Below the pieces are notes generated by a model, which was given only the letters and a program-made list of their open reading frames with translations, had not been told where the DNA came from and ran no database searches. A DNA stretch of 64,000 nt from a bacterium. GTDB lineage: Archaea > Nanobdellota > Nanobdellia > Pacearchaeales > GW2011-AR1. Both the position numbers and the translations under genes were made by a program. The stretch is from the NCBI GenBank assembly GCA_036833455.1, contig DAITPU010000001.1, positions 116,397 through 180,396 on the forward strand, written 5' to 3'. Positions within the stretch are counted from its first letter, which is position 1. Each line of letters begins with the position of its first letter. Below, one piece after another: positions 3,225 to 64,000 of this stretch.

Positions 3225-3295
3225 GTAGTAGAGGAATCCCACTAGTTAATATTTTTAACTAGTAATATTTAGAAAATCACAATCTATTTATGCTA

Positions 3296-6070
<2,775 letters not shown>

Positions 6071-6184
6071 GTCACTAAAAGCCTCACATGTTATTTTCTA
6101 AATAACTTCCTCTACTACTTATCCTTTGTTTTTGTTAACCATTACCACAATAATTCTTATAAACTAAAATTCTTTTTTCAAATA

Positions 6185-19135: not shown

Positions 19136-20203
19136 ATGGTTCAAGATTTAAATTCAAAATTGGAAGAAGAACCTCCTTCTATTAGAAATTTTAAAAGACT
19201 ATCCATTGGTCTTTCTTTCAATGCTAAAAAGAATAATAGTTCTAAATTTGGAGATAAATATGCCGAATTTGACGACATAAAAACTATCCATTCAATAAAA
19301 TCTGCAATTGAATCTGCAGGACACCAAGTTATTCTTTTAGAAGCAAATAAAACTTTTATTAAAAAGGTAACAAGAAAAAAAATTGATTTAGTTTTTAATA
19401 TAGCAGAGGGTATAGAAGGAAAATCTAGAGAGTCTCATGTTCCATCAATTTTAGAAATGTTACAAATCCCCTACACTGGTTCAGGAGTGCTTACTCAAGC
19501 TTTAACATTAGATAAAAGAAGAACAAAAGAAATTTTAAGTTATCATAAAATTCCCAATGCAAAATTTCAATTAATTGACAAAAACAAATTTATTTTAAAC
19601 AAAAATTTAAAATTCCCTTTAATAGTCAAACCGAATTCAGAGGGATCAAGTAAAGGGATAACAAATAACTCTTTGGTCCAGAATAAAAAAGAATTGAATA
19701 AACAGGTAAAAAAAATTCTTAATGATTATTCTCAAGAAGCTCTAATTGAAGAGTATTTACCTGGAAGAGAATTTACTGTGGGGATGATAGGGAACCAAAA
19801 ACCTAAAGTTTTGCCTATAGTTGAAATAAATTTTAACCATTTACCTCCAGAAATTCATAAATTTGATTCATATGAGGCAAAATGGATTTACGATAATCCA
19901 AACTCTAATGAAGATCCATTGATTTGCCCTGCAAAAATAAATAAAAAACTTAAAAAAGAAATAGAAAATATATGCCTTCAAACATACAAAATATTGGATT
20001 GTTTAGATTTTTGCAGAATTGATTTAAGATTAGACTGTAAAGGAAAACCAAATATTATTGAAGTTAATGCGCTCCCAGGATTGATTCCAGATCCAAAAGA
20101 AAATTCAAGATTCCCCAGATCCTGTTTTACTCAGGGACTAACCTACAACCAAATTATTTTATCTATTTTAGATAGTGCTATAAAGAGGTATAATCTAAAA
20201 TGA
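19136..20203 (+). CDS. D-alanine--D-alanine ligase-family ATP-grasp enzyme (paralog A)
   Basis: N-domain FNIAEGIEGKSRESHVPSILEMLQIPYTGSGVL. ATP-grasp FPLIVKP, EEYLPGREFTVG, CRIDLRLD, IEVNALPG. Confidence 0.7.
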   Translation: MVQDLNSKLEEEPPSIRNFKRLSIGLSFNAKKNNSSKFGDKYAEFDDIKTIHSIKSAIESAGHQVILLEANKTFIKKVTRKKIDLVFNIAEGIEGKSRESHVPSILEMLQIPYTGSGVLTQALTLDKRRTKEILSYHKIPNAKFQLIDKNKFILNKNLKFPLIVKPNSEGSSKGITNNSLVQNKKELNKQVKKILNDYSQEALIEEYLPGREFTVGMIGNQKPKVLPIVEINFNHLPPEIHKFDSYEAKWIYDNPNSNEDPLICPAKINKKLKKEIENICLQTYKILDCLDFCRIDLRLDCKGKPNIIEVNALPGLIPDPKENSRFPRSCFTQGLTYNQIILSILDSAIKRYNLK

Positions 20204-21189
20204 AAATTGGATTAATTCATTGTGAAGGGGATTTTAAAAAATCTTCTCCTTTTGATTATGAAGGAAGGAAAAATATAGGTGATGCAGTGGAAATTGCATT
20301 AAATAACTTAAAAATGAATTATATAAAAATTCCAGCTAACAAAAAAATGTTTAAAAGTTTAGAAAAAAACAGAGTAGATTTAATATTTAATTCAGCCGAC
20401 GAGGGATTTAATATGAACACTCACTTAGAAGCTCAAATTCCTGCTTTTTTAGATATGTTAAATATTCCTTATACTGGATCTAATTATCTTACATTGGGTT
20501 TGTGTAATGATAAAATAAAAACAAAAGAGATACTTAAAGCAAATGGGTTACCTACTCCTAATTTTTTGGTAATAAAGAATAAAATTTCAGAAAATTTTGA
20601 AATTAAAGGAATAAAATTTCCCTTGATAATTAAACCTTCTAAAGAAGATGGAAGTATAGGAATAAAGATTGATTCTGTAGTTAATACAAAAAAAGAGATG
20701 ATAAAAAAAATAAATGAAGTTTTAGAAAAGTATAATCAACCTGTTTTAGTAGAAGAATTTATAGAAGGCAGAGAGATATACATAGGAATTTTAGGCAGAG
20801 ATAAAATAGAAGTTTTGCCCCCTACTGAAATAAAATTTAACCTTCCTAAAGGTTACAAAAATTTTTTGCCCTACGAGGCAAAATGGGAAGAGAATAGTTC
20901 ATACTATAAAGGAACTATTGCAACTTGCCCTGCAAAAATAGAGCAAAAATTATTTTCAAAATTAAAGGATGCTGCGATTAAATCATATAAAATTTTTAAT
21001 GTGAGGGATTATGGAAGGATAGATTTTAGAATTGATAAAAAAGGAAAAATTTTTATTTTAGAAGTGAATCCAAATCCAGATTTATCTAGAGAATCTGGAA
21101 TTGCTTTAATGGCAAAAAGAAGAGGAATGGAATTTGAAGATTTAATTAAAAAAATAATAAGTTATTCTAAACAAGATGAAATCAATTGA
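20200..21189 (+). CDS. D-alanine--D-alanine ligase-family ATP-grasp enzyme (paralog B)
   Basis: FNSADEGFNMNTHLEAQIPAFLDMLNIPYTGS, FPLIIKPS, EEFIEGREIYIG, GRIDFRID, LEVNPNPD. 4-nt overlap with the upstream gene. Confidence 0.75.
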   Translation: MKIGLIHCEGDFKKSSPFDYEGRKNIGDAVEIALNNLKMNYIKIPANKKMFKSLEKNRVDLIFNSADEGFNMNTHLEAQIPAFLDMLNIPYTGSNYLTLGLCNDKIKTKEILKANGLPTPNFLVIKNKISENFEIKGIKFPLIIKPSKEDGSIGIKIDSVVNTKKEMIKKINEVLEKYNQPVLVEEFIEGREIYIGILGRDKIEVLPPTEIKFNLPKGYKNFLPYEAKWEENSSYYKGTIATCPAKIEQKLFSKLKDAAIKSYKIFNVRDYGRIDFRIDKKGKIFILEVNPNPDLSRESGIALMAKRRGMEFEDLIKKIISYSKQDEIN

Positions 21190-21718
21190 AGGAGAAAATT
21201 TAATTTTAAAACAAGTTGAAGAAAAAGATGCTGAATACATTTCTAAATGGTTTTCAGATAAGGAGCAAAATAAATACATGAGTACTTTTGTTAGGACTAG
21301 AGATCATCCTATTGAAAAAATAAGAGAAGAAATTATAAATTCTAATGAAAATTTTGAAAGATTGTTTATGATTTATCTAAAAGGATATTGTAATCCAATA
21401 GGCCATTGCGGTATAGATGATTTAGACTTACACGATAAAAGAGGAGAAATTTTTTTTATAATTGGAGAAAAAGAATTTCAGGGAAAAGGTTACGGAAAAG
21501 AAACTGCAAAACTTCTTTTAAAACTTGGTTTTGAAAAATTAGGATTAAATACCCTTTTTGCAACTGCAACTTTAGAAAATGTATCTTCAATTAAAACATT
21601 AGAAAAAGTTGGATTTAAATATATTGGGATAAGAAGAGAATATAATTTTATAAATGATAAATATTTGGATGAAATTTTATTCGATATAACAAGGAAGGAT
21701 TACGAAAAAAATGAATAA
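21176..21718 (+). CDS. GNAT-family N-acetyltransferase
   Basis: GNAT motif A region IGEKEFQGKGYGKETAKLLLKLGFEKLGLNTLFA; overlaps both neighbours. Confidence 0.65.
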   Translation: MKSIEGENLILKQVEEKDAEYISKWFSDKEQNKYMSTFVRTRDHPIEKIREEIINSNENFERLFMIYLKGYCNPIGHCGIDDLDLHDKRGEIFFIIGEKEFQGKGYGKETAKLLLKLGFEKLGLNTLFATATLENVSSIKTLEKVGFKYIGIRREYNFINDKYLDEILFDITRKDYEKNE

Positions 21719-22805
21719 AAATAATATGAATAACAAGAAAAATAGAGATTTGAATTATTTGCATTTACCAAGAGCTATTTCCGATATAGATTCTCTAAAA
21801 ATTTCATTATCTAAAAAAGATATAGAATTAACAAAAGAAGAAATAGAAAATATAAAAAAAGTTATAGAAAAATATCCAATGAGAATTAATTCTCATTATC
21901 TTTCTCTAATTAAAGAAAAAAATGATCCCATCTGGAACCAATGTATTCCTAAAATTGAAGAAATAGAAGAAACTGGGGGTGAAGAAGATCCCTTAAAAGA
22001 AGAGGGAGAAGTCCCGTTTTTAACTCATAGATATCCAGATCGATGTTTATTAATTGTATCTAACACTTGTGCAATGTATTGCAGATTCTGCACTAGAAAA
22101 AGAAAAGTTGGTGAAGCTATCAAAAATCCTTCAATTGAGGATATAAGAAAAGCAATTAAGTATATAAAAAACCACAAAGAAATAAGGGACGTAATAATTT
22201 CAGGAGGAGATCCTTTCCTTCTAGGAGATAAAACTATTGAAAAAATATTAGTTGAATTAAGACAAATTCCTCACATAGAAATGATTAGAATTGGAACAAG
22301 GGTACCCTGCGTAATGCCTGAAAGAATTACTCATGAATTATGTAGTATTCTAAAAAAATATAATAAACGGCCTATTTTATATCTTAATACTCACTTTGAA
22401 CACCCAAATGAAATAACTGAGCAAGCTAGGCTTGCTTGCGAGAGATTGATTGATTCGGGCATACAATTAGGAAATCAAAGTATAGTCTTAAAAGGGGTTA
22501 ATGATGATCCAAAAATTTTCAAAGAATTGAATCAAAAACTTCTTGCAATTGGGGTAAAGCCATATTATATTTACCAACCAGATTTAGTTAAAGGAACTTC
22601 TCATTTCAGAAATAAGGTGGAAAAAGGCCTTAAAATAATTAAAGGGTTGAGGGGACACACAAGTGGAATGGCCGTACCTCATTTTGTTATAGATTCTCCT
22701 GGAGGAGGTGGAAAAATACCCCTTCTCCCAAAATACTCCACTATAAATAAAGATGGATCAGTTGATATGATTAATTATCAAGGAAAGAAGTTTAAGTATT
22801 TTTGA
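21711..22805 (+). CDS. kamA: lysine 2,3-aminomutase (KamA/AblA/EpmB family radical SAM)
   Basis: CAMYCRFCTRKRK (CxxxCxxC), ISGGDPF, PYYIYQPDLVKGTSHFR, typical KamA length. Confidence 0.8.
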   Translation: MNKNNMNNKKNRDLNYLHLPRAISDIDSLKISLSKKDIELTKEEIENIKKVIEKYPMRINSHYLSLIKEKNDPIWNQCIPKIEEIEETGGEEDPLKEEGEVPFLTHRYPDRCLLIVSNTCAMYCRFCTRKRKVGEAIKNPSIEDIRKAIKYIKNHKEIRDVIISGGDPFLLGDKTIEKILVELRQIPHIEMIRIGTRVPCVMPERITHELCSILKKYNKRPILYLNTHFEHPNEITEQARLACERLIDSGIQLGNQSIVLKGVNDDPKIFKELNQKLLAIGVKPYYIYQPDLVKGTSHFRNKVEKGLKIIKGLRGHTSGMAVPHFVIDSPGGGGKIPLLPKYSTINKDGSVDMINYQGKKFKYF

Positions 22806-35633: not shown

Positions 35634-36671
35634 CTATTTAAAATTATCTTCTAATTTATTTTTAAAATCAACAATCTGATCAGAACTTATTTGGCCCCCA
35701 ATTGCATCTTCATGCCCTCCAGCACTAGAAAAAGGAAAATCCTTCATAATCTCAATTAATTTAGTCTTAATTTTTTTTCCTCTTATTGAAAAATTTACTT
35801 TTCCTTGATTCAAATAACACACAGCAATTATTTTTTCAGGATAGTCGTAACTCAAACGATTGGCTAAATCTGCACTCATACTAATGTTTCCAGAATACTT
35901 AAAAAAAATTAAATTCGAAGAACCAATTACATTTAACTTAGCTTTAGCTATCAAATTTTTAAATTTATTATCAACCTCTAAAAATCTTTTATGTAAACTT
36001 CTCGTTTTTAAATTTTCTTCCAAAACTTCATAAGGAGTTTTAACCCCAATAAAAAAATGGATCATTTTATTTACTGAACTAGTTTTATCTTTAAGACCTA
36101 TTCCCATCATTCTAGAAATCTTTCCAATTTCAGAATTATAAAAAATATTAAATGCAGATTCAGAATTTAATCCTAAATCAGGATATTCTTGAAAAAAGAT
36201 TTTATTTTCTGGAGGAAGATACTTATCTGCAATACATCCGGCAATATAAATCCACAAATCTTCTTTTTTAGAATTAATTTGGTAACAAATTTTTGTTACG
36301 GGCACATTTTCAGGAGAATCAGAGTAAAGAGGATTATAATATTTTATGTAATCTGGGAAATTGAAATCTTTTTCATGATGGTCTATCCAAAGGATAGGAA
36401 TATTTCTTTCTCTTAAAGATTCAAAAAAATCTGAGCTAACCCTAGGTTGATCTAAAATTACCACATAATCCGGATTAAACTCATCTATTCTTCTAAAATA
36501 ATTCATATCTAAAGGAGAGGTCTTTACTGGGATTCCAATTCCCCTTCCTATAAATCTTCGTAAAAGAAGAAAACTGCAAAACCCATCTTGATCATTATCA
36601 AAATAAAATAAAGGATTTTGAGATTTATTTAATTCTTCTTTAATTTCTTCTATTTGAAAATTATTTAACAT
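35634..36671 (-). CDS. DHH/DHHA1 phosphoesterase, DhhP-like candidate c-di-AMP/pApA phosphodiesterase
   Basis: DNDQDGFCS, WIDHHE, C-terminal SSAGGHEDAIGG (GGH). Immediately downstream of and co-directional with disA. Confidence 0.65.
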   Translation of the reverse strand: MLNNFQIEEIKEELNKSQNPLFYFDNDQDGFCSFLLLRRFIGRGIGIPVKTSPLDMNYFRRIDEFNPDYVVILDQPRVSSDFFESLRERNIPILWIDHHEKDFNFPDYIKYYNPLYSDSPENVPVTKICYQINSKKEDLWIYIAGCIADKYLPPENKIFFQEYPDLGLNSESAFNIFYNSEIGKISRMMGIGLKDKTSSVNKMIHFFIGVKTPYEVLEENLKTRSLHKRFLEVDNKFKNLIAKAKLNVIGSSNLIFFKYSGNISMSADLANRLSYDYPEKIIAVCYLNQGKVNFSIRGKKIKTKLIEIMKDFPFSSAGGHEDAIGGQISSDQIVDFKNKLEDNFK

Positions 36672-36708
36672 GGTAAAAATAAAAAAAAGCCATTAAAAAA
36701 CCTATGGG

Positions 36709-37794
36709 TTAAATCCTTTTATTTAAAACTACTTTTTCCCTTAAATTATAAATTTCTTCTCTAAAAAAACTAACCATCGTTTCACTTTCTAAAAAATCTA
36801 AAAGTTTTTGGTTGCTTGCAGAAAGAATTTCTTTTAAATTATCAAAATTCCCAATTAAAATATCTACATATCTATCCGGAAGATTTGTTTTTCCTAAAAT
36901 TCGAATTCCCTTAGGAGAAATAGGTTTATCATGAAGCTCTTCAAATAATAATCTTAAAATATTCATTGGTTCCAATAAAAATTCAAAATCCATATTTTCA
37001 AGTATACTCAAGGAAATTGTTGAAGTTTGACCAAGATAATCTCTAAGAATAAGTTCCTCTTCTCTTTCTAATCCGCTAGTTAATTCTTTGGCTCTCATTT
37101 TAATAATAAATCCCTCTCTACCCAATTCAACAAGATATCTTTCAACTATGGCTGCAATTCTCTTTATGATTTCTATTCTTTGTAAAACTAAACAAACGTT
37201 ATTCATTCTAACATTTCTTTGAAGTTCAAGGGAATTTAAATTTTCTAAAAAACCATCATAAACATCCCTTTGCTTTTCTAAAACTTGCAAAGTTTCAGAA
37301 ACTCTTCTCAATATCTCAGAACTACTTTCTAATTGATAATTAATCTCTCCTTGATAAAGAGAAATTTTATTCTTTCTTTCTGAAACAGCAATTGTTACCG
37401 TATTAGCTTGTTTAGCCGTTCTTTCTGCAGATTTATGCCTTGTTCCTGTTTCTTTCGTATGGATTCCAGAAGCTGGAACTAAAAGAGTATTAGCAGAAAG
37501 GATATCTTTTGCATCTTTGGATAAAATTATTGCTCCATCCATTTTAGCAAGTTCTACTAATTTTTGGGAAGTGAATTTGGAATTTATTCTAAACCCCCCT
37601 TCAACAATTCCTTCTAAATTCCCGTTATCAAAAACAATCAATGCCCCCATTCTTGCCCTAAGTAGATCATCTAAGGCACTTCTAAGACTCGTTCCTGGAG
37701 CAACCATTCTAAGAACATCAATAAAATCTTTTTCTTTTGAAACTTCTTTATTCGAAGATAAAATCTCTTCAATTTCAATAATTTCCTCTTCCAT
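36709..37794 (-). CDS. disA: DisA-type diadenylate cyclase (c-di-AMP synthase)
   Basis: DAC domain motifs DGAIILS and GTRHKSAERTA, long helical linker, C-terminal HhH-like KGIRILGKTNLPDRYVDILIGNF; 361 aa. Confidence 0.75.
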   Translation of the reverse strand: MEEEIIEIEEILSSNKEVSKEKDFIDVLRMVAPGTSLRSALDDLLRARMGALIVFDNGNLEGIVEGGFRINSKFTSQKLVELAKMDGAIILSKDAKDILSANTLLVPASGIHTKETGTRHKSAERTAKQANTVTIAVSERKNKISLYQGEINYQLESSSEILRRVSETLQVLEKQRDVYDGFLENLNSLELQRNVRMNNVCLVLQRIEIIKRIAAIVERYLVELGREGFIIKMRAKELTSGLEREEELILRDYLGQTSTISLSILENMDFEFLLEPMNILRLLFEELHDKPISPKGIRILGKTNLPDRYVDILIGNFDNLKEILSASNQKLLDFLESETMVSFFREEIYNLREKVVLNKRI

Positions 37795-41856: not shown

Positions 41857-42227
41857 TGGTAAAGAAAAAAAAAGTTTCTGAGAAAAAAGAAATTATCCAC
41901 ATTAAACTAGAGAGCCAGGAGGCCTTAAAAGCAAAAAAGGATTTATTATATTCCCAAATTGATCTAATAAATTTAATAAAAACAATTGGAAGATATAAAG
42001 AACTGAGAGAACAAGAATTGGATAAGAAAATTGAAATTTCTAAAAAAATAAAAATTATTCAAAAAAATATTCAAAAAATAAAAAAAGAATTTCCAAATTT
42101 AAGACCCTTAGAAGAGAAAGAAAAAGAAAAACCTCTTGCTACTCCAAAAATGATCATTCCAAAAACTTCAGAATTAGAGCAAGAATTATTAGATATTCAA
42201 GAAAAATTAAGATTAATGGAAAATTAA
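41856..42227 (+). CDS. hypothetical K/E-rich coiled-coil protein
   Basis: ORF abutting the upstream gene. Confidence 0.3.
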   Translation: MVKKKKVSEKKEIIHIKLESQEALKAKKDLLYSQIDLINLIKTIGRYKELREQELDKKIEISKKIKIIQKNIQKIKKEFPNLRPLEEKEKEKPLATPKMIIPKTSELEQELLDIQEKLRLMEN

Positions 42228-43258
42228 AATTCTAAACCGTATCTTTCTCTAATTTTATTTAGCCTATTTAATTGAATAAAATTTATATTTTCTTCATCAA
42301 AAACCTTAGCTAAAAACTTTGAATCTGAATATTCTTTTAAATTAGGTTCAAGTGAATCTCCTTCAGAAACAATAATTAACTCAAAATCTCCATAAATTTC
42401 AGAATAAACTCCTTTATCAAAATATCCTCCTTTTGAAAAAGAAATTGGGCTTGGGGAAGTTGTTTCAATAAAACAATAACCACTTTTTCTAAAACTTTTT
42501 TTCAAAGGGCATTTTATACCTGCCGCTTGATGATTTAATTCAGGAAAATAAAAAAGAGCAGTTCCAAAACCTAATTCTTTCAATAAAAATACGGTTAATT
42601 CGGATTTACTCTCACACGCTCCTTTTCCAAAATAAAGCGTTTGATATGGATAATAAGAAAATTTTAAAGGGAATTCTATTTCAGAATAAGAAATATTTTC
42701 AAAATCATCACTATATTCTATATTCTGCACTAAACTTACAGAAATTCTTGCTTGATCTGTTTTTGAATCAGGGGCTAAATTCTGTATTGCTACGATTAAA
42801 GGTAGAAGAGATTCTCTTTGAAGGGGTTCATTTATTTTTTTAAGCTCAAAATCTTTCCTAACCGGAAAATTACTTTCATTAAAATTAATAAATTTAGGTA
42901 AATTAGAGAGATAATTAACAACTTCCTCATATAGCTCTATTTCAACACTTTCTTTTTGACCTTTCAAGGTATAATAAAAAGAAGATATTTTTGATTCTCC
43001 AGATAAATTTGAATTACATTTCTCTAAATCAATCTTAAGACCTTCTGCACAGGAACATAAAGAAGCTCTTGGAATCAAAATTCCTTCTTCACAAAAATAA
43101 GGCAAGTTTGTAGAACAATTTCCATAAAAAGTCCCATCACCACATATAAAATTTTTATTTGAAACAAAAAAATTTAAAGAAAAAAGCAAAATAAGACTAA
43201 CTATCAATAAGGAAACAAAAATAAACCTGTATTTCGCTTGCATAAACAATAAATGCAC
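42224..43258 (-). CDS. secreted/membrane-anchored Cys-rich protein, hypothetical
   Basis: N-terminal signal/anchor, multiple Cys pairs. Confidence 0.35.
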   Translation of the reverse strand: MHLLFMQAKYRFIFVSLLIVSLILLFSLNFFVSNKNFICGDGTFYGNCSTNLPYFCEEGILIPRASLCSCAEGLKIDLEKCNSNLSGESKISSFYYTLKGQKESVEIELYEEVVNYLSNLPKFINFNESNFPVRKDFELKKINEPLQRESLLPLIVAIQNLAPDSKTDQARISVSLVQNIEYSDDFENISYSEIEFPLKFSYYPYQTLYFGKGACESKSELTVFLLKELGFGTALFYFPELNHQAAGIKCPLKKSFRKSGYCFIETTSPSPISFSKGGYFDKGVYSEIYGDFELIIVSEGDSLEPNLKEYSDSKFLAKVFDEENINFIQLNRLNKIRERYGLEF

Positions 43259-54926: not shown

Positions 54927-55304
54927 TTGAATTTCTGTTACATGAAATTAGGAAGAAAGATAACTGGCGGAAGGTATGTTAAAAGAAGTAAGAAAAAGAA
55001 AGACGAGAGACAAGGACAAAGAAGAATAGTTAAATTGGGAGAAGAAAAAAGAAAAACAAAAAGAATTAAAGGTGGGAACGTTAAAACATTTTTATTAAAA
55101 AGTAAGGAAATTAATTTAGAAGAAAACGGAAAAATAAAAAAAACTCAAATAAAAAATGTTATTGAAACTCCTTCAAATCGTTTCTTTGCGAGACAAAATA
55201 TTTTAACAAAAGGAACTATAGTAGAAACAGAATTAGGTAAAGCAAAGATAACAAATAGGCCTTCTCAAGAGGGAAATATTAATGGAACTTTAATAAAAAA
55301 TTAA
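54927..55304 (+). CDS. rps8e: 30S ribosomal protein S8e
   Basis: GRKITGGRY...RIKGGNVK...ETPSNRFFARQNILTKGTIVETELGKAKITNRPSQEGNINGTLI. Confidence 0.75.
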   Translation: MNFCYMKLGRKITGGRYVKRSKKKKDERQGQRRIVKLGEEKRKTKRIKGGNVKTFLLKSKEINLEENGKIKKTQIKNVIETPSNRFFARQNILTKGTIVETELGKAKITNRPSQEGNINGTLIKN

Positions 55305-57274
55305 TTGTTTATCTTAATGGGTTCCCATATAACTGTTATAGGAGATTTATTTGGGCTTATATCATAATTTTTTCTTTCTCTTAGGGGAGTTCTAGATCCG
55401 GGACTATCATAAAAATTAGCCAAATATCTTGATCTATCTGCCCAACTAATAAAAACCATATTATGACCTCCCGTGCTTGAACCCCTATTTTGATTATAAA
55501 CTTGGACTAAATCTCCTGGTTTTAAGTTATATTGAGATCTTGGGCAATCATAACATTTACCTGTTGAATCTATTTTACATCCGCAAGAAGAACAAGAAGG
55601 TTGTGATCTTTCCTTGCTTCCTTGAACAGAGTAAACACATCTAGGATTTAATTTTAATTCATCGTAAATGGAACGAACAGAAGTATAACAAGTATCTCCA
55701 CAAACAACCCCTATTTTTTTCTCGGCAAGATCTAAAATTGAAGGAAATTTGACCTGAGACTCAGAAGATTTCCTATACAAAGCCCCCCCAAATAAATAAT
55801 CTGTTTTTTGAATTCCAGATTTATCTTTAAAATTGGATAAAATCTCAGTTTCAACTTTTTTATAGTTCCCAGAAACTTTGAAAGGGAAATTTCCAAAATT
55901 AAAAATTACTTGTTCATTGGAATTGGATTTTCTTTCATAAAAATTTACGATGGATGAATCTTCTATATTTTCTATTTCTAATTTTGAAACAGAATTTTCA
56001 TTTGATATCACTTCAATGAAATTTCCTTCTTTAGCTAGTATTAAAATACCTTTTTTTGCATTAATTTCTCCTTGCGTCTCTAAATAAGAATCTAAATCAA
56101 AATTTCCAGAAGAATAATCCCTTTGTATAGAATTAATAAAATCTATATAAGGGCCATTGCTTTCTTTTCTTTCTTCTTTTAAAGAGGCTAATTCTTTTTT
56201 CAAAAAATCTTCTAAATCAAAATTAAGATTAGAATCATAGTTTTGTCTTAGTTTTTTCCTAAAATAACTAGAATATCCTAAAAAGTCTCCGCTTTCAACT
56301 ATGCAACTCTGAGAAAAACCAAAACAATCCTGTTTATTTTTAAAAAGACGAGTTTCTTTTTCTACAAAATACGTCAATATTTTTTTAGCACTTCTTCCTT
56401 CAGAAACAGTAAAGAGAGTATATTTGGATTTATTTCCTAAAACAACTCCGTTTTTATCTAATTTTAAAAATCCATCTATTTCTGCATATTCCTCTTCAGA
56501 AATAATTCTAACAAATTTATCTGCATACAATCCATTTTTAATAATGATTTCTTCTCCTCTTCTTTCTATTTTAAAATCCCCTTTATAATCCTCTCCCAAG
56601 ATATTTGCTCTTCCTGAAGACATGCTAAAATTTAATTTTGAATTTTCACCTATAATCACCTCTCCTAAATAAAAAAAGGGAATCCCTTCTTCTGATCCAA
56701 AATGATCCACAAATGAATTTGAAATATTAGTTCCATCTTCAAGCATAATTTTTCCAGAAGGAAAAATTTTAGCCCCCTTAAAAAGAGGATTTTCCAAAGG
56801 AAAATTTGTTGAGTCCTCTCCCTTTGTGGTTATCATCCTTCTTAGATTATCTCCAGATTCAATATAATATTGGACAATTTCTCCTCCTAAATCTTCGATT
56901 TCAAATGAGTTAAACCAAGTTTTTTTTATATTGGGATTTTCATTTAAAACGGAAAGTTCTTCTCTAGCTAAAAGATCTAATTTAATTAAAATTGAATCTG
57001 GGACTTTATCAAGATCCTCTTCTTTAGATAATAACTCTTCTAAAAGTTTTAAATCAAATTGTATTAAATCATTAGATTTTATATTTGAAAGATTTAATTC
57101 TCCTACTAAGAAAGTTTTTTCGAAGTCCGCCCAAGGAATTTCTTCTTCAGCAAAGATTAAGGAGAAATTTAAAATAAATAAAATTCCTAAAAAGACTATA
57201 AAAAAATTACGTTTCATTTTTCTCCCAAAAATATTTATTTGCAAAGGAATAAATAATTTGTTCTTTACTATCAT
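55301..57274 (-). CDS. large secreted protein with C-terminal NlpC/P60 (CHAP-clan) cysteine peptidase-like domain
   Basis: N-terminal signal/anchor. C-terminal Cys-rich region then KPGDLVQVYNQNRGSSTGGHNMVFIS (PGDLVFF...HVGIY-like). Confidence 0.45.
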   Translation of the reverse strand: MIVKNKLFIPLQINIFGRKMKRNFFIVFLGILFILNFSLIFAEEEIPWADFEKTFLVGELNLSNIKSNDLIQFDLKLLEELLSKEEDLDKVPDSILIKLDLLAREELSVLNENPNIKKTWFNSFEIEDLGGEIVQYYIESGDNLRRMITTKGEDSTNFPLENPLFKGAKIFPSGKIMLEDGTNISNSFVDHFGSEEGIPFFYLGEVIIGENSKLNFSMSSGRANILGEDYKGDFKIERRGEEIIIKNGLYADKFVRIISEEEYAEIDGFLKLDKNGVVLGNKSKYTLFTVSEGRSAKKILTYFVEKETRLFKNKQDCFGFSQSCIVESGDFLGYSSYFRKKLRQNYDSNLNFDLEDFLKKELASLKEERKESNGPYIDFINSIQRDYSSGNFDLDSYLETQGEINAKKGILILAKEGNFIEVISNENSVSKLEIENIEDSSIVNFYERKSNSNEQVIFNFGNFPFKVSGNYKKVETEILSNFKDKSGIQKTDYLFGGALYRKSSESQVKFPSILDLAEKKIGVVCGDTCYTSVRSIYDELKLNPRCVYSVQGSKERSQPSCSSCGCKIDSTGKCYDCPRSQYNLKPGDLVQVYNQNRGSSTGGHNMVFISWADRSRYLANFYDSPGSRTPLRERKNYDISPNKSPITVIWEPIKINN

Positions 57275-57956
57275 AATTAAAAATTAAAAGATAAACTACA
57301 TCTTCTTCAAAATAAAAAGTGTCAAAATAAAAATTATTTTTTTCTGATAAATCTGCCAAAAATCCCAATGGAACAAAAGAAGGATTTTTTTCTTGTTCAA
57401 ATAAAAAGTCCTTAATTAAGAGATAATTTCCATAAAAAGGGGAATTAAATTCAAACTTAAAATTTGTTATTTTAGTTGAAGCTTTTTCATTCTTTAAAGT
57501 TAAAGGATAGTTAATGTCTAATATAATTTTATTTTTAAATAAATTTGATTTAACAGAAATTTCTTCAAAAGAGATTGTGTAATCTGAATTAGTGATATTT
57601 TCCACACAATAGATTAGATTATTTTCTAAATAATTCGAAATGCTTCTTTCTAAAATAGTTTTATTTGGAGAAAAATCTTCCTTAATATACCAATAATAGG
57701 GTATCTTTCTTCCAAGAAAATCTCTACTTAAATTAGGAGGAGAATAATACCCTCCTCTTAGCCCTATCTCTTCTAATCCCTCAAAAAGAACTTTTTCAAC
57801 ACAAAAAGAAATTTGATTGGTTAAGGAATTTATTTTTGGAGAAAAAATATTTTTTATGTTTAATTCTGCTCTAAAAGAAAATAATAAAATAAAAATTCCA
57901 ATTAATAATATTGAAATTATTATAAAAATGCTTATTTGAGCTTTTTTATTCAACAT
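57207..57956 (-). CDS. secreted/membrane-anchored hypothetical protein
   Basis: N-terminal hydrophobic anchor; 249 aa. Confidence 0.3.
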   Translation of the reverse strand: MLNKKAQISIFIIISILLIGIFILLFSFRAELNIKNIFSPKINSLTNQISFCVEKVLFEGLEEIGLRGGYYSPPNLSRDFLGRKIPYYWYIKEDFSPNKTILERSISNYLENNLIYCVENITNSDYTISFEEISVKSNLFKNKIILDINYPLTLKNEKASTKITNFKFEFNSPFYGNYLLIKDFLFEQEKNPSFVPLGFLADLSEKNNFYFDTFYFEEDVVYLLIFNYDSKEQIIYSFANKYFWEKNET

Positions 57957-58060: not shown

Positions 58061-59008
58061 ATGTCGAACATAAAAAAATGCCCAGAATGTGGAAGCATTC
58101 ATTTAAATTATGATTCTCATCTTGGAGAAGTTATATGTAATGATTGCGGACTAGTTGTCGAAGATAAAATGGTTGACACTGGAATTGATTTATCTGGAAA
58201 ATTCGATAAAGGTGAAAAACAAGGAAGAGGAGGGGCTCCAATTTCTATGCAAAAATTTGATAAAGGTTTAACTACTAATGTTGGAGAAATTTCAGATATT
58301 TATAGGCTTGAACCAAAACAAACAAGAAAATTTTTAAGATTAAAAAAATGGCAAGAAAGAGTTTCAACTTCCATAGAAAGAAATTTAAGACTTGCTATGG
58401 CTGAATTAAGAGTTATTGCTTCTTATCTAGATTTATCTAATGTTGTAAGAGATGAAGCTGCAAGAATCTACAATTACGTTTTACAAAGAGGTTTGGTTAG
58501 AGGTAGATCTATGGAATCTGTAATTGCTGCTTGTTTATATGCGGCTTGTCGTTCTTATAATATTCCAAGAACTCTTGATGAAATGGCAACAGCATCAGAT
58601 GTTGAAAGAAAAGAAATAGGAAGAACCTATCGTTTTATAATTAGAAAATTGGGTATAAAAGTAAAACAATCCTCTCCCAAAGATTACATTTCTAGATTCT
58701 CTTCTGTATTAAAATTATCTCCTGCAACGCAAAATGATGCTTTAGAAATTTTAGATAAGGCAAAAGATGTTGAATTAACTTCAGGAAGAGGTCCAGCTGG
58801 AATTGCTGCTGCTGCACTTTATGTTGCAGCTTTGATGAACGATGAAAAAAAGACTCAAAGAGAAGTTGCAGATATTGCAGGAATTACAGAAGTAACTATA
58901 AGAAACAGATACAAAGAATTAATTGAAAAATTAAGTTTAGAAGATAAAATAAAACAAAAAGAAGTAGAATCTAAAGAGAAAAAAGCTCTGAAAAAAAGTA
59001 ATTCTTAA
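58061..59008 (+). CDS. tfb: transcription initiation factor IIB (TFB)
   Basis: Zn ribbon CPECGS...CNDCGLV, B-reader/linker, two cyclin-fold repeats (RGRSMESVIAACLYAACR...; GRGPAGIAAAALYVAAL). Confidence 0.9.
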   Translation: MSNIKKCPECGSIHLNYDSHLGEVICNDCGLVVEDKMVDTGIDLSGKFDKGEKQGRGGAPISMQKFDKGLTTNVGEISDIYRLEPKQTRKFLRLKKWQERVSTSIERNLRLAMAELRVIASYLDLSNVVRDEAARIYNYVLQRGLVRGRSMESVIAACLYAACRSYNIPRTLDEMATASDVERKEIGRTYRFIIRKLGIKVKQSSPKDYISRFSSVLKLSPATQNDALEILDKAKDVELTSGRGPAGIAAAALYVAALMNDEKKTQREVADIAGITEVTIRNRYKELIEKLSLEDKIKQKEVESKEKKALKKSNS

Positions 59009-59020
59009 AACTAGTATAAA

Positions 59021-59103
59021 TAAAAATGCGGGAGACAGGATTCGAACCTGCGCAGGAATTCACCACTGGAGCCTAAATCCAGCCCGTTTGACCACTCCGG
59101 CAC
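59021..59103 (-). tRNA. tRNA-Leu (anticodon TAG), long variable arm
   Basis: Minus-strand read GCGGGGG...CTGGA/TTTAGGC/TCCAG + 14-nt variable arm + GCAGG/TTCGAAT/CCTGT/CTCCCGC-A. Confidence 0.8.
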
Positions 59104-59167
59104 CCCCGCATAAAAATAATCTAATAAGGGAGTATAAAAACTCTTCGGAGAATTATATTTGATTATT

Positions 59168-62100
59168 TTATCCGCAATGGATAAATCCAAAATAATCTGA
59201 ATCGGATTTTACTTCAGAAATTTCAACTTCAGCTTGAGATACACTATCCTTTAAATTCCCCCCTATTAAACTAAGAGAATTACTCTTAATTTCAACTACT
59301 ATATCGCAGTGAGATTTTCCAGACCTAACTGAATCGTAATTTGTCGGACAACCCTCTTCTCTACACTTACAAATTATATCTCCTTCTTGAATTTTATCAA
59401 TCTCGGAAATCCTATAGGTCTTACAACCATAATTAGAAGGATTATCTCTTAAAGTTGAAAAATATCTTGCATGTGCAGAATCGAATGGAAAATTAAAATT
59501 TGATTCTTTTACAATACTTGAAATAAATGCTGCAGACCAAGCAGTACCTCTACAATCCCAATTTGAAAGCAATGCATCGTCATAATATTTTTTTAAATAA
59601 GTTTTTCCTAACTCACTACATTCATCTAATTTTCCATACTCCCATTTTGAATATTCTCTAAGAGCAATTGTAGCAATTTTATTGCTCCCTCCTCTGGAAG
59701 ATTTTTTTACAAACTCTTGTGCAAAATTCATTACTTTTTCAACGTAATCTGTATCTGATCCAGAGCCACATCCCCACCCATTATATCCTCTAAGAGCTGC
59801 ACGCCACTCAGTATATCCTGCGTATTTAGGGTAAGTTTTTATGCATTCATCTACCAATTTTTTAAAACTTGAACTTCCTTTCAGATAAGTCGAAGATGCT
59901 TTCACACCAAATTTATACTCATTATATTTTTCAAGTAGAATCCTAGCTCCAACTTCTATACTTAATTCAGGATTGTTTAATAATTGATTTTTACAATCAT
60001 TCTCATTTTTAACCAAACCATATTTTCCACACCATACATTTGGCATTACTTGTGTTATTCCATGAGCCCCTCTGTTTGAAACGGCATTAACATTACATCC
60101 AGATTCTTGATTGGATAATGCAACTAAAATTGAAAAAGGAACTCCTGTCTTTTCAGAAACTTTAAAAAAGAGATCTTTATAATTTATACAACGAGAATTC
60201 ACCGAAGACCAATCATACTCTTCAAGAGAAATTTCTTCTTCAGGTAATATTTCTTCTTCCCCTTCTTCAGGAGGAATTGTAATTTCTGAATCTTCTATTT
60301 CAAACTGATCGTAATTAAATATCATTGCAGATCCAAGATAAAAATTCTTTTCATTTCCTAATCTTAAAACTAAAGATTCTATTATCTTTGGCATTTCTAT
60401 TTGCTTTTTTCCAGAAATCTTTTTTTCAATAGTTCCACTTTTCTTCCAAGATTTTTCATCATAACTCCAAAGCCATTCTCCAGAATCAGGAGAAGTGTTT
60501 GGTCTTTCTCCTTCATATCTAATAATATTTCCATATCTAAAATAAATTTTTTTTATGTCCGGTAAATCTTCTATAACAAAAATTCCATCGTGACCCATGT
60601 TAACTCCATTATTAACTCCAACTAAATCTGGATATGTATTTCCTGGCCTCAATGATCCTAATAGCCATTTCCCCTCTTTATCTTCAATAGTTCTATCTAT
60701 TAACAAAGTTAATCCTTCTAAATAATTTTTTCCTTTTATCTTATTTAAATAATCTTGGTTTCTTTTATTTAGATCTGGATTTATATATTGGCTCACATTT
60801 TTCCAGTTATTTTCTCCCCAAATTCTCCAAAACCATTCTCCTTGTGAAAATGAATACATAATGTTATTGGGTTTTAGAGTAGTCAATCCATCTTCGAAAA
60901 CTAAAACGGAATAGCTATAAATAGGAAGAATTTTATCAATTTCTTCTTCAGGTAATTCTTCTTCCTTTTCTTGTTTGTCTGGATCTACAAGTATTGGCTC
61001 ATCTAATAATTTAAAAGACTCTTTAGCCAGATCTCCGAATGCAATTCCCTTTAAAAGATACAAATATCCTCTCTGATTAGAATAATAAACTTTGCTCAAA
61101 ATTCCATCAATTCTTTTTATTCTTTCCATTGGATGAAGGTTTCCCTCCATAATCTCCTTAACAAATTCTTCAAATTCAAATTTCTCCATATAGTTTCCTT
61201 CTTTTCTTAATTTTTCAATAAAATTTTCAGTCAAATTTTTTAAAGCAGTATCGGAAGTAATTTCAAACTCAGCAGCCTGTTTAATGCTTTCAGTATCCAC
61301 CCAACATTTAATATTTGGATCTCCACAATAACCAACTTCCATCCACCTCCCAGAAAGAAGTGAATTTCCTGGAACTTGGGAAGAACAGATTCTAATTAAA
61401 CCATTCTTATAAACCTCAGTATTTAGGACGTTATCAATTCCTTCTTGTATATTTGGATTCAATAAATTATAAGCACTCATACTTCCAGAGATACATTCCT
61501 TTTCTGTCTTTATATCTTCTTTCGTTGATTGAGAAAGCAGATATTGGTCTTTCAAATAATTAGCTGCAAAACTTGATGTGACTTGTTTAAATCCACATTT
61601 TTCTAAATTATTTATTCGAACACAAAGTTGCTTAAATCCGGAAGCAGCAGTAAAATCAATAGTTTCAGAAGCATATTTTCCTGCAGCGATATATCCAGAT
61701 CCAACATTTCTTATTCCAAATTGAGTATCTTGATAATATGAACTCCCCTCACTTCCCTTTAAATAAACTTGGTAATATGCCCCTTGATCATTTCCAGCAA
61801 AGATATGATAATAAACCTTATACTGACTCATAGGAGGAACTGTTGCACTAGAATATTCTATCTCTTCAAATCTTGCATTAAACTGAGAAGGACTGTCAGG
61901 TTGAACTAAAGTACTAAGCGATCCAAATGAAGAAGGATAAACTACCGAAACAAAATTTTTACAAACACTCGCTCCAATTTGATCTGTACTCCTGGCTTTA
62001 AATGCATTAAAAGAATTTACTCCATAAAAATTTACAAAGTAATTTATTGAATCTTCTGTATTTTTCCAAGCATTTTGCAATGTTAAATATTCTCCTCCTC

Positions 62101-64000
62101 CTCGAACATTTTGATTCAAAATAACTTTTGCTATTTTAGAAATTCCTATTTCTGTTAAAGGTTTTGCATCTCTCCATAAAAATTCACAAAGATAAATACT
62201 ATAAATTTCATCACAAACCCCTACCATTTGACCGCTCTCCACACTTGTTTCAAGACAACTTTGGTAGGAGTCTAAAACACTAATTAAATTATCCAAACCT
62301 GCATGAACTCCTGAAAGGCAAATAGGAAAAATAATTCCTTCCTTATAATTTGGAAAACACAAAACTAAACTACCTATGATTCCAGAGCCAATTACATTTT
62401 GAACAGGATAGGCACCCCCGAAATCGCACCTAGTATTAGGGCACATCACGGGATCACAAACATTAAATAGAATTTGGCAATCTTTTGGAGACATAAAATC
62501 CGTACAAGATATAAGCGGATCATTACTTTTAGGAGAACCTACATTTATATTTGAATTTAAAATTTTTACACTCCTTGCTCCAGATTTATAATTACTTTTA
62601 GCATCTTCTATTGCCTTTATTGCATTTGAAATTAATTCTTCCGAATCTTTTTTATCTAATCCAGGGAATTGATTATATGCTTGGCCAGTTCCAAGATTAA
62701 TCATTTGACAAATATCATCTGAAATGCTTAACCCAAATTCTTGTAATCCATTTTTTCCAACATTACAAACATAAAAACTATTAACAAAAGTAGAATCGCT
62801 GTAACTTGCTATCTCCCCAAAAACAGGAATTGTTTGTTTTATTGAAACATACCATCCCTTCTTTGTGTTGAAAGGAACTATTGCTGGAAGACCCTTATAA
62901 GGCTCAGTTTCATAATAAGTTACTCTTGGATCCAGATAAACATTATTATAACTAGTTGAATCATATTCTTTAAAAGTTAATCTTTCTATTTCTTCTAATC
63001 CTCCCGATACTTGTACTTTATCCAAATTATAAACTAAAGGTTTACCTATTTCATCTCGAAGTAAAGTGTAAATATCCCCTCCAAGATTTCTATTTAATAA
63101 AACCACGAAGGACTCCGAAGATTTTTGATTAACTACATAAGCAACAGGAGTATTTTCTGGAAACCCATTGAAATTTTTCCAATCTATGGAATAAAGAGTC
63201 AAACCCTTATAAGGAAGCTCTTTTAAATTTTCAGGAATAACATAATTCACTTGAAGAGAATTTATTTTAATCTTTTCTAATTGAGAATTTAATTGTTTTT
63301 TATTTTTTCCATTTATTTGTAATTCTTTCAAAAGAGAATACAAGCTTACATTATAACCTAAATTATCTGGATTTTTTTTAACTAAATTTGAATACAGCTC
63401 TATAGATCGTATTTTTTCTATATCAAAAATTCCATTTTCCCAAGCTTCAACATTGAGATACATTTTTACTTCAGAGAGATTTATACTTTCAGAAGAAACC
63501 TTTGGATTAATCATCGAAAAACCAAGATGGTCTAAACTATCTTTAACTTGTAAAGAATAAACTTCCACAAATTTTTTGTTATTTATTATTTTGTCTCCTA
63601 AAGGATTTTTTATATACATTCCATCTTGATTTCTTATTTCTCTTAATAAAATATTTTGATTATTTATTGCATCGGATATTTCTTTTACTTCTGCATCAAT
63701 ATCTTTTGAATTGTCTAAAAGACATTCTTCCACACTGGCATAATTCTTCTCATTTACCATCAAGCTACATTTCTTTATCCACCCTTCTTCTCCTCTAAGT
63801 ACCTCTTGCCTTGCCAAGGTATCTCCTTTAATTCCCCCCAAAATATTTTTGGCTGCTAAAAAACCTCCTGTAGCAAAACAGGCATATTTCATATTTTCCA
63901 CAACTTTTCCCAATCCGTCATTAATGTCTTTGATCTGGTTTATTAAACCCTCTGTTTTGTCTGCAACCTTTTTAGCTTTTTCTGGAGAAAGTTGAATTGC
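59168..64000 (-). CDS. giant (over 1,600 aa, truncated by the window) protein with a lytic transglycosylase (SLT) domain followed by a C-terminal NlpC/P60 peptidase-like domain
   Basis: SLT motif ALSNQESGCNVNAVSNRGAHGITQVMP. C-terminal WDCRGTAWSAAF...QEGDIICKC...SHCDIVVEI (Cys...GD...H triad). Reading frame stays open upstream of the track start (TTG at 63913) to position 64000. Confidence 0.6.
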   Translation of the reverse strand, partial: AIQLSPEKAKKVADKTEGLINQIKDINDGLGKVVENMKYACFATGGFLAAKNILGGIKGDTLARQEVLRGEEGWIKKCSLMVNEKNYASVEECLLDNSKDIDAEVKEISDAINNQNILLREIRNQDGMYIKNPLGDKIINNKKFVEVYSLQVKDSLDHLGFSMINPKVSSESINLSEVKMYLNVEAWENGIFDIEKIRSIELYSNLVKKNPDNLGYNVSLYSLLKELQINGKNKKQLNSQLEKIKINSLQVNYVIPENLKELPYKGLTLYSIDWKNFNGFPENTPVAYVVNQKSSESFVVLLNRNLGGDIYTLLRDEIGKPLVYNLDKVQVSGGLEEIERLTFKEYDSTSYNNVYLDPRVTYYETEPYKGLPAIVPFNTKKGWYVSIKQTIPVFGEIASYSDSTFVNSFYVCNVGKNGLQEFGLSISDDICQMINLGTGQAYNQFPGLDKKDSEELISNAIKAIEDAKSNYKSGARSVKILNSNINVGSPKSNDPLISCTDFMSPKDCQILFNVCDPVMCPNTRCDFGGAYPVQNVIGSGIIGSLVLCFPNYKEGIIFPICLSGVHAGLDNLISVLDSYQSCLETSVESGQMVGVCDEIYSIYLCEFLWRDAKPLTEIGISKIAKVILNQNVRGGGEYLTLQNAWKNTEDSINYFVNFYGVNSFNAFKARSTDQIGASVCKNFVSVVYPSSFGSLSTLVQPDSPSQFNARFEEIEYSSATVPPMSQYKVYYHIFAGNDQGAYYQVYLKGSEGSSYYQDTQFGIRNVGSGYIAAGKYASETIDFTAASGFKQLCVRINNLEKCGFKQVTSSFAANYLKDQYLLSQSTKEDIKTEKECISGSMSAYNLLNPNIQEGIDNVLNTEVYKNGLIRICSSQVPGNSLLSGRWMEVGYCGDPNIKCWVDTESIKQAAEFEITSDTALKNLTENFIEKLRKEGNYMEKFEFEEFVKEIMEGNLHPMERIKRIDGILSKVYYSNQRGYLYLLKGIAFGDLAKESFKLLDEPILVDPDKQEKEEELPEEEIDKILPIYSYSVLVFEDGLTTLKPNNIMYSFSQGEWFWRIWGENNWKNVSQYINPDLNKRNQDYLNKIKGKNYLEGLTLLIDRTIEDKEGKWLLGSLRPGNTYPDLVGVNNGVNMGHDGIFVIEDLPDIKKIYFRYGNIIRYEGERPNTSPDSGEWLWSYDEKSWKKSGTIEKKISGKKQIEMPKIIESLVLRLGNEKNFYLGSAMIFNYDQFEIEDSEITIPPEEGEEEILPEEEISLEEYDWSSVNSRCINYKDLFFKVSEKTGVPFSILVALSNQESGCNVNAVSNRGAHGITQVMPNVWCGKYGLVKNENDCKNQLLNNPELSIEVGARILLEKYNEYKFGVKASSTYLKGSSSFKKLVDECIKTYPKYAGYTEWRAALRGYNGWGCGSGSDTDYVEKVMNFAQEFVKKSSRGGSNKIATIALREYSKWEYGKLDECSELGKTYLKKYYDDALLSNWDCRGTAWSAAFISSIVKESNFNFPFDSAHARYFSTLRDNPSNYGCKTYRISEIDKIQEGDIICKCREEGCPTNYDSVRSGKSHCDIVVEIKSNSLSLIGGNLKDSVSQAEVEISEVKSDSDYFGFIHCG

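Follow-up and report, generated by a model that had tools for sequence, protein, structure and literature searches.

Genome surveys have repeatedly come across giant proteins with a lytic transglycosylase (SLT) domain in archaea of the Pacearchaeota and Woesearchaeota. Early sightings by Rinke (2013) and Castelle (2015; AR20) are cited in a study that describes the protein family fam00969 (Castelle et al. 2021; Front Microbiol 12:660052; PMC8204110). In its passages on fam00969, the members are presented as extracellular proteins of 'up to 3,000 aa' that are specific to Pacearchaeota and Woesearchaeota, and either 'attachment to bacterial cell walls' or the degradation of these walls has been proposed as their role. 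For the same genes, the relevant passages of another survey speak of a 'large lytic murein transglycosylase' and put forward the hypothesis of a 'vampiristic' lifestyle (Vigneron et al. 2022; PMC9723730). The bacterial-wall reading of these archaeal proteins is repeated in the corresponding passage of Takamiya et al. (2024). Here, we describe a gene of this kind that runs across one end of a stretch of 64,000 nucleotides (positions 116,397 to 180,396 of contig DAITPU010000001.1, assembly GCA_036833455.1), which as a whole is called the window in the following. An earlier note, made from the sequence of the window alone, had drawn attention to this gene.

Giant SLT proteins of the Pacearchaeota and Woesearchaeota have thus already been published, and the present protein adds a member to them. 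Judging from the published description, the giant gene very probably encodes a member of fam00969, with which it shares the lineage, the size class, the extracellular location, the SLT/GH23 domain and the proposed role. The two differ in how the family is drawn: the published passages define it by the SLT domain, whereas here it is defined by a core of ~1,725 amino acids (aa), with the SLT domain occurring in ~35-40% of the members. The passages on these proteins that we consulted in the above papers contain neither a core-defined family nor a combinatorial tail, a fixed synteny, a pilin-type partner or a DUF2272 domain of the serine type. Very large hydrolase-bearing surface proteins are also found in other ultra-small host-dependent prokaryotes, for instance the SPEARE proteins of Nanohaloarchaeota. 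The likeness is limited to size and hydrolase content; the proteins are unrelated, have other domains and share no sequence similarity that we could detect. The 'Archaeovorins' of Omnitrophota are likewise huge hydrolase-bearing surface proteins of ultra-small host-dependent prokaryotes, some of which carry an SLT domain and are encoded near genes with class III signal peptides (bioRxiv 10.1101/2023.11.21.568195). However, they are unrelated, exceed 10,000 aa, have other domain sets and belong to a bacterium that attacks archaea; again, no sequence similarity was detected.

A conserved core with an exchangeable tail

The 3' part of the giant gene lies on the minus strand as a frame that is open from its stop codon at 59168-59170 to the window edge at 64000, with no internal stop. 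The 1,610 residues encoded there are 100% identical to the database protein P0001, which has 2,335 aa and is found on five independent contigs (the longest of 237 kb), all with the same neighbour genes. The window holds the last two-thirds of the protein, and the 725 N-terminal codons, including those for the signal peptide, lie beyond it. Hydropathy analysis of the full-length protein revealed an N-terminal hydrophobic export signal (MKSKNLILFLSLILFSGVVVSS) and no second strongly hydrophobic segment; the giant protein is predicted to be exported via this Sec signal peptide. The earlier note had described a giant secreted protein of more than 1,600 aa that continues past the window and contains a lytic transglycosylase domain, and the full length, the N-terminal signal and the intact catalytic glutamate (Glu) of the SLT domain bear this out. 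The parts of the gene are the following:

59168-64000, minus strand: 3' part of the giant gene (4.8 kb), encoding residues 726-2335, and the stop codon
61001-64000, minus strand: in-window part of the conserved core, residues 726-1725, with abundant conserved cysteines (Cys) and a fold that was not recognised
62186-62506, minus strand: most conserved stretch of the family, residues 1224-1330, with invariant columns and the Cys cluster CDPVMCPNTRCDFGG, followed by a Gly-rich, mildly hydrophobic helical segment
60221-60898, minus strand: tail module WxW, residues 1760-1985, with the two Trp-rich repeats EWFWRIWG and EWLWSYDE
59726-60187, minus strand: SLT/GH23 domain, residues ~1997-2150, with the motifs NQES, GITQVMP and RGYNGWG; codon of Glu2024 at 60104-60106
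59171-59665, minus strand: DUF2272 domain, residues 2171-2335; codons of Ser2214 at 59534-59536 and of His2289 at 59309-59311

The giant protein consists of a Cys-rich core of ~1,725 aa of no recognisable fold and a tail of ~600 aa that is made of exchangeable modules with acidic linkers between them. At least 221 homologues, 1,900-2,750 aa in length, were obtained in a word-indexed search. The named ones are mostly Nanoarchaeota, Pacearchaeota or 'archaeon', and several have been deposited as 'transglycosylase SLT domain-containing protein [Nanoarchaeota / Pacearchaeota archaeon]'. According to BLAST coverage, residues 1-1725 are common to essentially all of the 119 homologues that were listed, and a conserved core is present in each of them (119/119); past residue 1725 the coverage drops to 20-30 of these sequences, none of which extends over the DUF2272 part. 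A local alignment of the family contains 171 positions that are conserved to at least 93%, concentrated between residues 1050 and 1650 and including ~30 Cys. Moreover, scanning one genome of each GTDB species with a pattern uncovered 564 core-encoding loci. The best 80 of the 564 stem from distinct assemblies and are named Woese-, Pace- or Nanoarchaeota or 'archaeon', except for two with bacterial labels. They include AAA011-D5, the genome that Rinke et al. obtained from a single cell (L078). The giant gene is a single-copy, lineage-wide orthologue in at least 564 species genomes of the Woese- and Pacearchaeota.

AlphaFold was run on pieces of the core, using a 37-sequence alignment for residues 26-1050. 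This part is predicted to form a row of beta-rich domains that is followed by a helical region (mean predicted local distance difference test (pLDDT) of 76). In the model of residues 1040-1740 (mean pLDDT of 63.7), an alpha/beta domain was predicted with confidence, together with a beta-sandwich and helices at the end. Residues 1224-1400, the most conserved stretch, which is hydrophobic and rich in Cys and Gly, were modelled as helices of low confidence, and the segment of residues 1224-1330 reaches a Kyte-Doolittle peak of only 1.2-1.4, which is not that of a clear transmembrane helix. When the family profile was compared with PDB sequences, no match below an E value of 0.06 was obtained.

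The tail begins with the WxW module, which has no Pfam match, and continues with the SLT/GH23 domain (Glu2024) and the DUF2272 domain (Ser2214/His2289). The WxW module is bracketed by two acidic linkers (60230-60267 and 60938-60975) that encode LPEEEI. The two stretches of linker DNA (38 nt each; repeat D1) are 82% identical. This likeness fits a history of module exchange, and the two stretches may be its joints. Repeats of the kind found in diversity-generating retroelements were sought around the tail and none were found.

In Pfam, only the SLT and DUF2272 domains are significant. The SLT model (PF01464) matches residues 2002-2106 of the full-length protein (1277-1381 of the fragment in the window) with an E value of 6.6e-13 and 48.7 bits, the cut-off being 21.3, and NCBIfam models of murein transglycosylases match the same stretch. 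Glu2024 of the NQES motif aligns with the catalytic Glu-Ser pair of Slt70 (RQES; ARQESAWN in the region of E478; 1qsa) and of MltC (QIES), and the pairwise E values to the solved Slt70 and MltC structures are ~4e-3. The catalytic Glu is kept in all 42 SLT modules of the family, in which the Glu-Ser pair and the downstream motifs are strictly retained as well, and its invariance argues for retained catalysis. Thus, the SLT catalytic motif that had been recognised in the earlier note is genuine, and its Glu is present, aligned and invariant. The domain is homologous to the catalytic domain of the E. coli enzymes (family 1, GH23, PF01464), with which it shares the E-S, G-x-x-Q and Y-N-G motifs. 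However, Slt70 and MltC are periplasmic enzymes of 36-70 kDa that work on the sacculus of their own cell, whereas here the SLT domain is a module of ~150 aa (residues ~2000-2150) in an archaeal surface protein of 2,335 aa.

The C-terminal domain was assigned to DUF2272 (PF10030), which matches residues 2210-2317 with an E value of 2.7e-13 and 50.6 bits (cut-off, 27) and extends over positions 45-163 of the 191 in the profile. Neither NlpC_P60 (PF00877) nor CHAP (PF05257) gave a match at E <= 1, and a weak match to TIGR02594 falls into the same region. Among the homologous DUF2272 domains, W2213-S2214, H2289 and E2185 are found in 41 of 41, H2235 is found in 40 of 41 and Asp2291 is conserved. 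The nucleophile position reads W-S (W-S-A-A-F; Ser2214) in all 41 aligned domains, and Cys2208, located six residues upstream, is variable. We take Ser2214 to be the nucleophile position by analogy with the W-C-A-A-F motif of NlpC/P60-type families. DUF2272 has been described as a papain-like, mostly proteobacterial domain, which is placed in the NlpC/P60-CHAP-amidase group together with Tse1 and the Tae amidase effectors and has a 'conserved serine in place of cysteine' (PMC10318531). The domain of the giant protein carries this family signature, with Ser in place of the papain-type Cys and the other active-site residues, among them the His, being kept. It differs from the family as described in that its closest relatives are archaeal and that it is fused behind an SLT domain.

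The earlier note had read this region as an NlpC/P60-like domain with a Cys...PGD...H triad and as a DL-endopeptidase. The papain-like fold group was, in broad terms, correctly recognised; the model is DUF2272 and not NlpC_P60 or CHAP. The triad does not hold, as the invariant residue is Ser2214 and not Cys2208, and 'PGD' reads 'EGD' here. The label DL-endopeptidase is unproven because Ser replaces the nucleophilic Cys and because no biochemical activity is known for DUF2272 (PMC10318531). A HMMER scan with residues 1985-2335 against 1.84 billion representative proteins yielded 1,269 matches at E <= 0.001, many of which share only the DUF2272 part, with 35-50% identity. Three proteins (P0128, P0130 and P0134) contain SLT and DUF2272 in the same order. 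Of the ten best clusters that were looked up, four have a taxon name, in each case Woesearchaeota or Pacearchaeota; one is a protein of 2,302 aa that NCBI labels 'DUF2272 domain-containing protein'. The word-indexed search with residues 2136-2335 alone gave nothing significant, and phmmer with the DUF2272 domain gave no match to PDB sequences at E <= 10.

The tails vary between species. In 118 homologue tails, local iterative profiles detected the SLT domain 42 times, a second lysozyme-like module 17 times, a Cys...GD...His module ~51 times, the Trp-rich WxW module 41 times and a short C-terminal module 44 times. There are roughly 40 module orders, that is about 40 architectures, and 31 clusters of end modules. 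An independent GTDB set of 71 complete 3' ends contains the SLT domain in 27, the second lysozyme-like module in 7 and the Cys-His module in 29 cases; five ends have both types, 13 have neither, and some tails are shorter than 100 aa. Moreover, precomputed Pfam annotations assign Amidase_3, Glucosaminidase, Peptidase_M23, VanY, Trypsin_2, leucine-rich repeats (LRR) and ankyrin repeats to individual members. Only about 35-40% of the family members carry the SLT domain, which is a frequent option and not the defining feature of the family. The Cys-His modules, in which the Cys is conserved in 38 of 40 and the His in 40 of 40 sequences, may be papain-like, judging from their motif pattern. A relationship to DUF2272 was considered and is not claimed: hhalign aligned only the 'GD' motif, with a probability of 11%. 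In one locus (L058, 12130-12902), the giant frame stops at ~12130 and is directly continued by a frame encoding the WxW module, which could be due to a frameshift, a pseudogene or an assembly error.

Conserved gene order and the upstream partner gene

In nearly every related locus, the genes are arranged in the order GINS, S3Ae, L44e-like, (an open reading frame (ORF) of 89 aa), an ORF of 608 aa, giant gene and tRNA-Leu, followed by the gene for transcription factor B (TFB) on the opposite strand, S8e, LSM and a metallo-beta-lactamase-fold protein. The window contains the following features that bear on the context of the giant gene:

59026-59110, minus strand: tRNA-Leu(TAG), found with ARAGORN and Rfam, 57 nt past the stop codon of the giant gene
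58061-59008, plus strand: TFB (TFIIB), a housekeeping neighbour, with the Pfam domains Zn_Ribbon_TF and TFIIB
57207-57956, minus strand: pilin-type protein of 249 aa, N-terminus KKAQ followed by ISIFIIISILLIG, paralogous to the N-terminal ~210 aa of the partner
55301-57217, minus strand: exported protein of 638 aa with a C-terminal Cys...GD...His module and no Pfam or PDB sequence match
1341-6098: complete archaeal rRNA operon (16S-tRNAAla-23S), with archaeal small- and large-subunit matches

The tRNA-Leu, which the earlier note had located immediately downstream, lies on the same strand as the giant gene. Among 36 related loci, 30 have a tRNA-Leu right behind the giant gene, with the anticodon TAG in 29 of these, and TFB is 81-94% identical and syntenic in 53 of the 80 loci. 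The tRNA-Leu is thus part of the ancestral gene order and not an integration scar. In two loci, ARAGORN called a 'tRNA-Pyl (cta)' of 92-94 nt beside tRNA-Cys (L013, 16154-16245; L015, 16466-16559). These genes occupy the spot that is taken by tRNA-Arg(tct) in most related loci and are probably mis-typed tRNAs that contain introns.

In 67 of the 80 loci, the giant gene is directly preceded by the ORF of 608 aa on the same strand, and most of the other loci are cut off upstream. The ORF often overlaps the start of the giant gene by a few bases; the pair is therefore probably co-expressed. The partner family has at least 1,233 members, most of the listed ones being 605-630 aa long; it contains no Pfam domain, and its named members are 'hypothetical'. 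In 57 of 59 cases, the N-terminus reads [KR/N][GAS]Q(V/I/L)(T/S)(I/V/L)F(I/V)I and continues with a hydrophobic run; of the remaining two, one has a miscalled ORF start and one is a listed prefix that ends at the motif. Archaeal class III signal peptides are characterised by a short basic N-terminus, a motif of G, A or S in front of Q between which cleavage occurs, and a hydrophobic helix of ~20 residues. By this motif, we take the N-terminal pattern of the partner to be such a type IV pilin-like signal peptide.

A second gene pair of this kind, consisting of a smaller pilin-type protein and an exported hydrolase-like protein, is located on the minus strand just past TFB (55301-57956). The ORF of 249 aa matches the 608-aa partner in BLASTP with an E value of 1e-14 and has no match to a Pfam or NCBIfam family. 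In a motif scan of the window and of locus L001, only these two ORFs had such N-termini. The Cys...GD...His module of the 638-aa protein was found by tblastn inside the giant ORFs of L005, L013 and L079 (44-55% identity) and, more weakly, of three further loci (23-29%). No homologue of either gene was found downstream of the giant gene or of TFB in any of the 80 related loci.

The DNA stems from a DPANN archaeon of the Pacearchaeota/Woesearchaeota type (Nanoarchaeota in GTDB) with tiny cells. Besides the archaeal rRNA operon and TFB, the window encodes the ribosomal proteins S8e and S17e, an LSM protein, GatD/GatE and deoxyhypusine synthase; S3Ae and GINS are encoded on the same contig just past the window edge. 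The G+C content is ~29% throughout the window, and the tail of the giant gene (0.29-0.33) equals the core and the genome. The two related loci with bacterial names are L024 (DATKUW010000047.1, 'Bacillota bacterium') and L057 (JBAZBJ010000019.1, 'Parcubacteria group bacterium'). Both contain the full archaeal syntenic block of the 608-aa partner, giant gene, TFB, S8e and LSM, to which L024 adds S3Ae. The two are therefore probably archaeal contigs that were mis-binned into bacterial metagenome-assembled genomes.

Possible functions and competing explanations

On balance, it appears likely that the giant protein is displayed at the surface as a device for binding and cutting bacterial peptidoglycan by means of its tail. 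From the signal peptide, the domain identities, the conservation of the catalytic residues, the family architecture, the synteny and the partner gene, we infer that the protein is displayed at the surface, forms a complex with its partner, acts on peptidoglycan and has the biological role outlined in the following. After export, it would stay attached to the cell surface alongside the pilin-like partner, with the tail pointing outward. There, the SLT domain would cleave the bonds between N-acetylmuramic acid (MurNAc) and N-acetylglucosamine (GlcNAc) in bacterial peptidoglycan, and the peptide stems may be a target that the DUF2272 domain attacks or binds. Either the wall of a bacterial host or prey cell could be opened locally, or muropeptides could be released from bacterial debris. 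In favour of this function, domains that elsewhere are murein-specific occupy the tail position throughout the lineage, and by local profiles most tails contain SLT, second lysozyme-like or Cys-His modules. That bacterial peptidoglycan is the target, as the earlier note had assumed, is a natural inference, and in their relevant passages the published genome surveys arrive at the same function (PMC8204110; PMC9723730).

Several points weigh against a wall-cutting device. About 60% of the family members have no SLT domain and some are nearly tailless, so that the conserved function of the family resides in the core and not in wall hydrolysis. The Cys-His modules were not tied to a known hydrolase, as their profile had no match among PDB sequences and as Pfam, applied to nine representative tails, returned two SLT matches only. 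The partner has no Pfam or NCBIfam match, so that it is assigned to class III by its motif only, and neither a prepilin peptidase nor an assembly or pilus ATPase was found in the 64-kb window and a further 10 kb. To our knowledge, no bacterial host has been demonstrated for archaea of the Pacearchaeota/Woesearchaeota lineage. The Ser in place of Cys in DUF2272 and the lack of a known activity of this family (PMC10318531) have to be added, and for every family member the function is read from sequence.

The main rival explanation, which we regard as improbable, is that the giant protein is a structural or housekeeping component of the archaeal cell's own envelope, for instance as an S-layer-like canopy or, with the partner, as an anchor complex, and that the tail remodels the cell's own glycans. 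A single-copy, lineage-wide gene at a fixed chromosomal position among genes for ribosomal proteins, TFB and LSM would suit such a role, as would the fact that the core and not the hydrolase tail is conserved. Moreover, a two-gene operon for a large exported protein and a membrane-anchored partner resembles S-layer gene pairs such as slaAB, and two ATP-grasp ligases similar to D-Ala-D-Ala ligase (Ddl) are encoded in the window. However, an SLT/GH23 domain needs a glycan with MurNAc, and no genes for murein synthesis were seen in the 64-kb window; the Ddl-like genes themselves fall below the NCBIfam cut-offs and stand beside GNAT and KamA-like genes, without mur genes. The tails of other species amount to a catalogue of murein hydrolases (amidase_3, M23, VanY and glucosaminidase), and the core, at 35-50% identity between orders, would be exceptionally well conserved for an S-layer protein. 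Still less probable, and ranked second among the rivals, is a pure adhesin, in which SLT and DUF2272 would serve as binders of carbohydrates and peptides that attach the archaeon to bacterial walls and leave these uncut. The Ser in DUF2272 and the LRR or ankyrin repeats that replace enzymes in some members are in line with this, and attachment to the wall is also suggested in the passages of Castelle et al. (PMC8204110). Nevertheless, the SLT Glu-Ser pair and its downstream motifs are kept in 42 of 42 modules and the Ser/His/Glu set of DUF2272 in 41 of 41 domains, as would be expected for active sites.

Pairs of an SLT domain and a peptidase are typical of the enzymes with which phages and conjugative elements breach cell walls. 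Together with the tRNA gene 57 nt downstream and the matches of the SLT stretch to 'lytic tail' families of phages in PHROGs, this pairing could point to an enzyme left behind at tRNA-Leu by a phage, a conjugative or another mobile element, and the earlier note had indeed considered a mobile-element relic and drawn the analogy to CwlT, phage tail lysins and tape-measure proteins. We reject this origin as very improbable. The PHROGs matches cover only residues ~1973-2169, with none for the other 2,100 residues and the three neighbour proteins; the core has no relative in 2.9 million viral contigs; and no integrase, phage, conjugation or type IV secretion gene is present in the 27 kb examined. 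The giant gene, the tRNA-Leu and the housekeeping flanks are syntenic across dozens of species genomes, the tail does not differ from the core and genome in G+C content, and orphan tail cassettes downstream were found in none of 53 loci. CwlT of ICEBs1 and the TraG/PrgK-type conjugation hydrolases also have a glycan-cleaving domain (muramidase or SLT) followed by a papain-like domain (NlpC/P60 or CHAP). However, they are ~330-900 aa long, belong to conjugation modules and have Cys as the peptidase nucleophile, whereas the giant protein has Ser at this position, an unrelated N-terminal region of 1,990 aa and no mobile context. That the contig is a bacterial contaminant or chimera and the murein hydrolase an ordinary bacterial enzyme is hardly credible. 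The bacterial names of 2 of the 80 related loci would fit this idea, but both loci hold the same archaeal gene block and look mis-binned; the archaeal rRNA operon and the genes for TFB, S8e, LSM and S17e lie within the same 64 kb, with S3Ae and GINS just outside; and P0001 has the same neighbours on five independent contigs, the longest of which measures 237 kb. The architecture is also reminiscent of polymorphic toxins, which combine a conserved N-terminal presentation region with a variable C-terminal 'warhead' (Zhang et al. 2012, Biol Direct 7:18). A toxin system of this type was rejected: apart from one interrupted ORF, no homologue of a tail module lies between the giant gene and TFB in 53 loci, and neither a downstream immunity gene nor a silent cassette was found there. 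Here, the variation is found between species at an orthologous locus, and the warheads are wall hydrolases, to which an archaeon would be inherently immune. The analogy is an architectural one only.

A bolder extension of the wall-cutting device can be held only tentatively. The giant protein and the pilin-type partner could form an undescribed, lineage-defining surface apparatus, whose interchangeable wall-breaching heads would, in each species, be matched to the wall chemistry of the bacterial host. The heads would comprise SLT, the second lysozyme-like module, Cys-His, DUF2272, amidase_3, M23, VanY and glucosaminidase, and the core would have a novel fold, with its invariant Cys cluster and a Gly-rich helical segment of amphipathic character, through which it could touch a partner cell or become inserted into it. 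If this were true, the apparatus would provide the first molecular handle on an episymbiosis of archaea on bacteria, and hosts might be predicted from genome sequences. Few uncultured archaea are as abundant as the Pacearchaeota and Woesearchaeota, for which hosts have yet to be identified. That some of them live on bacteria or eat bacterial walls is most strongly hinted at, on the genomic side, by a universally conserved surface protein with murein-specific hydrolase modules. For experiments, the conserved core with its swappable heads, the obligatory pilin-type partner and the Ser-type DUF2272 domain, which could be assayed for the first time, offer starting points.

Further genes of the window

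Further features of the window with defined domains are:

11701-12780, plus strand, and 17276-18355, minus strand: two full-length FtsZ paralogues (Tubulin and FtsZ_C domains) within 6 kb
36709-37794, minus strand: DisA-type diadenylate cyclase (DAC and DisA-linker domains)
35634-36671: DHH/DHHA1 phosphoesterase that flanks the diadenylate cyclase

An apparent operon of four genes on the plus strand (19136-22805) starts with the two tandem ATP-grasp genes similar to D-Ala-D-Ala ligase, which match PF07478 with E values of 2e-38 and 1.3e-40 and yet stay below the NCBIfam cut-offs for Ddl. It continues with an ORF of 180 aa that resembles GNAT acetyltransferases and with a KamA-type lysine/glutamate 2,3-aminomutase, a combination that is unusual in an archaeon. 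The operon may serve for the synthesis of a peptide or osmolyte containing beta-amino acids rather than of D-Ala-D-Ala. As evidence for murein synthesis, the Ddl-like genes were discarded, given their scores and the absence of mur genes alongside.

The diadenylate cyclase and the phosphoesterase (35634-37794) make up a pair for the synthesis and degradation of cyclic di-AMP in a reduced archaeal genome. Finally, an exported Cys-rich protein of 344 aa is encoded on the minus strand at 42224-43258. It shows a weak, transglutaminase-core-like match (E 0.036, below the cut-off) and may be another papain-like surface enzyme.

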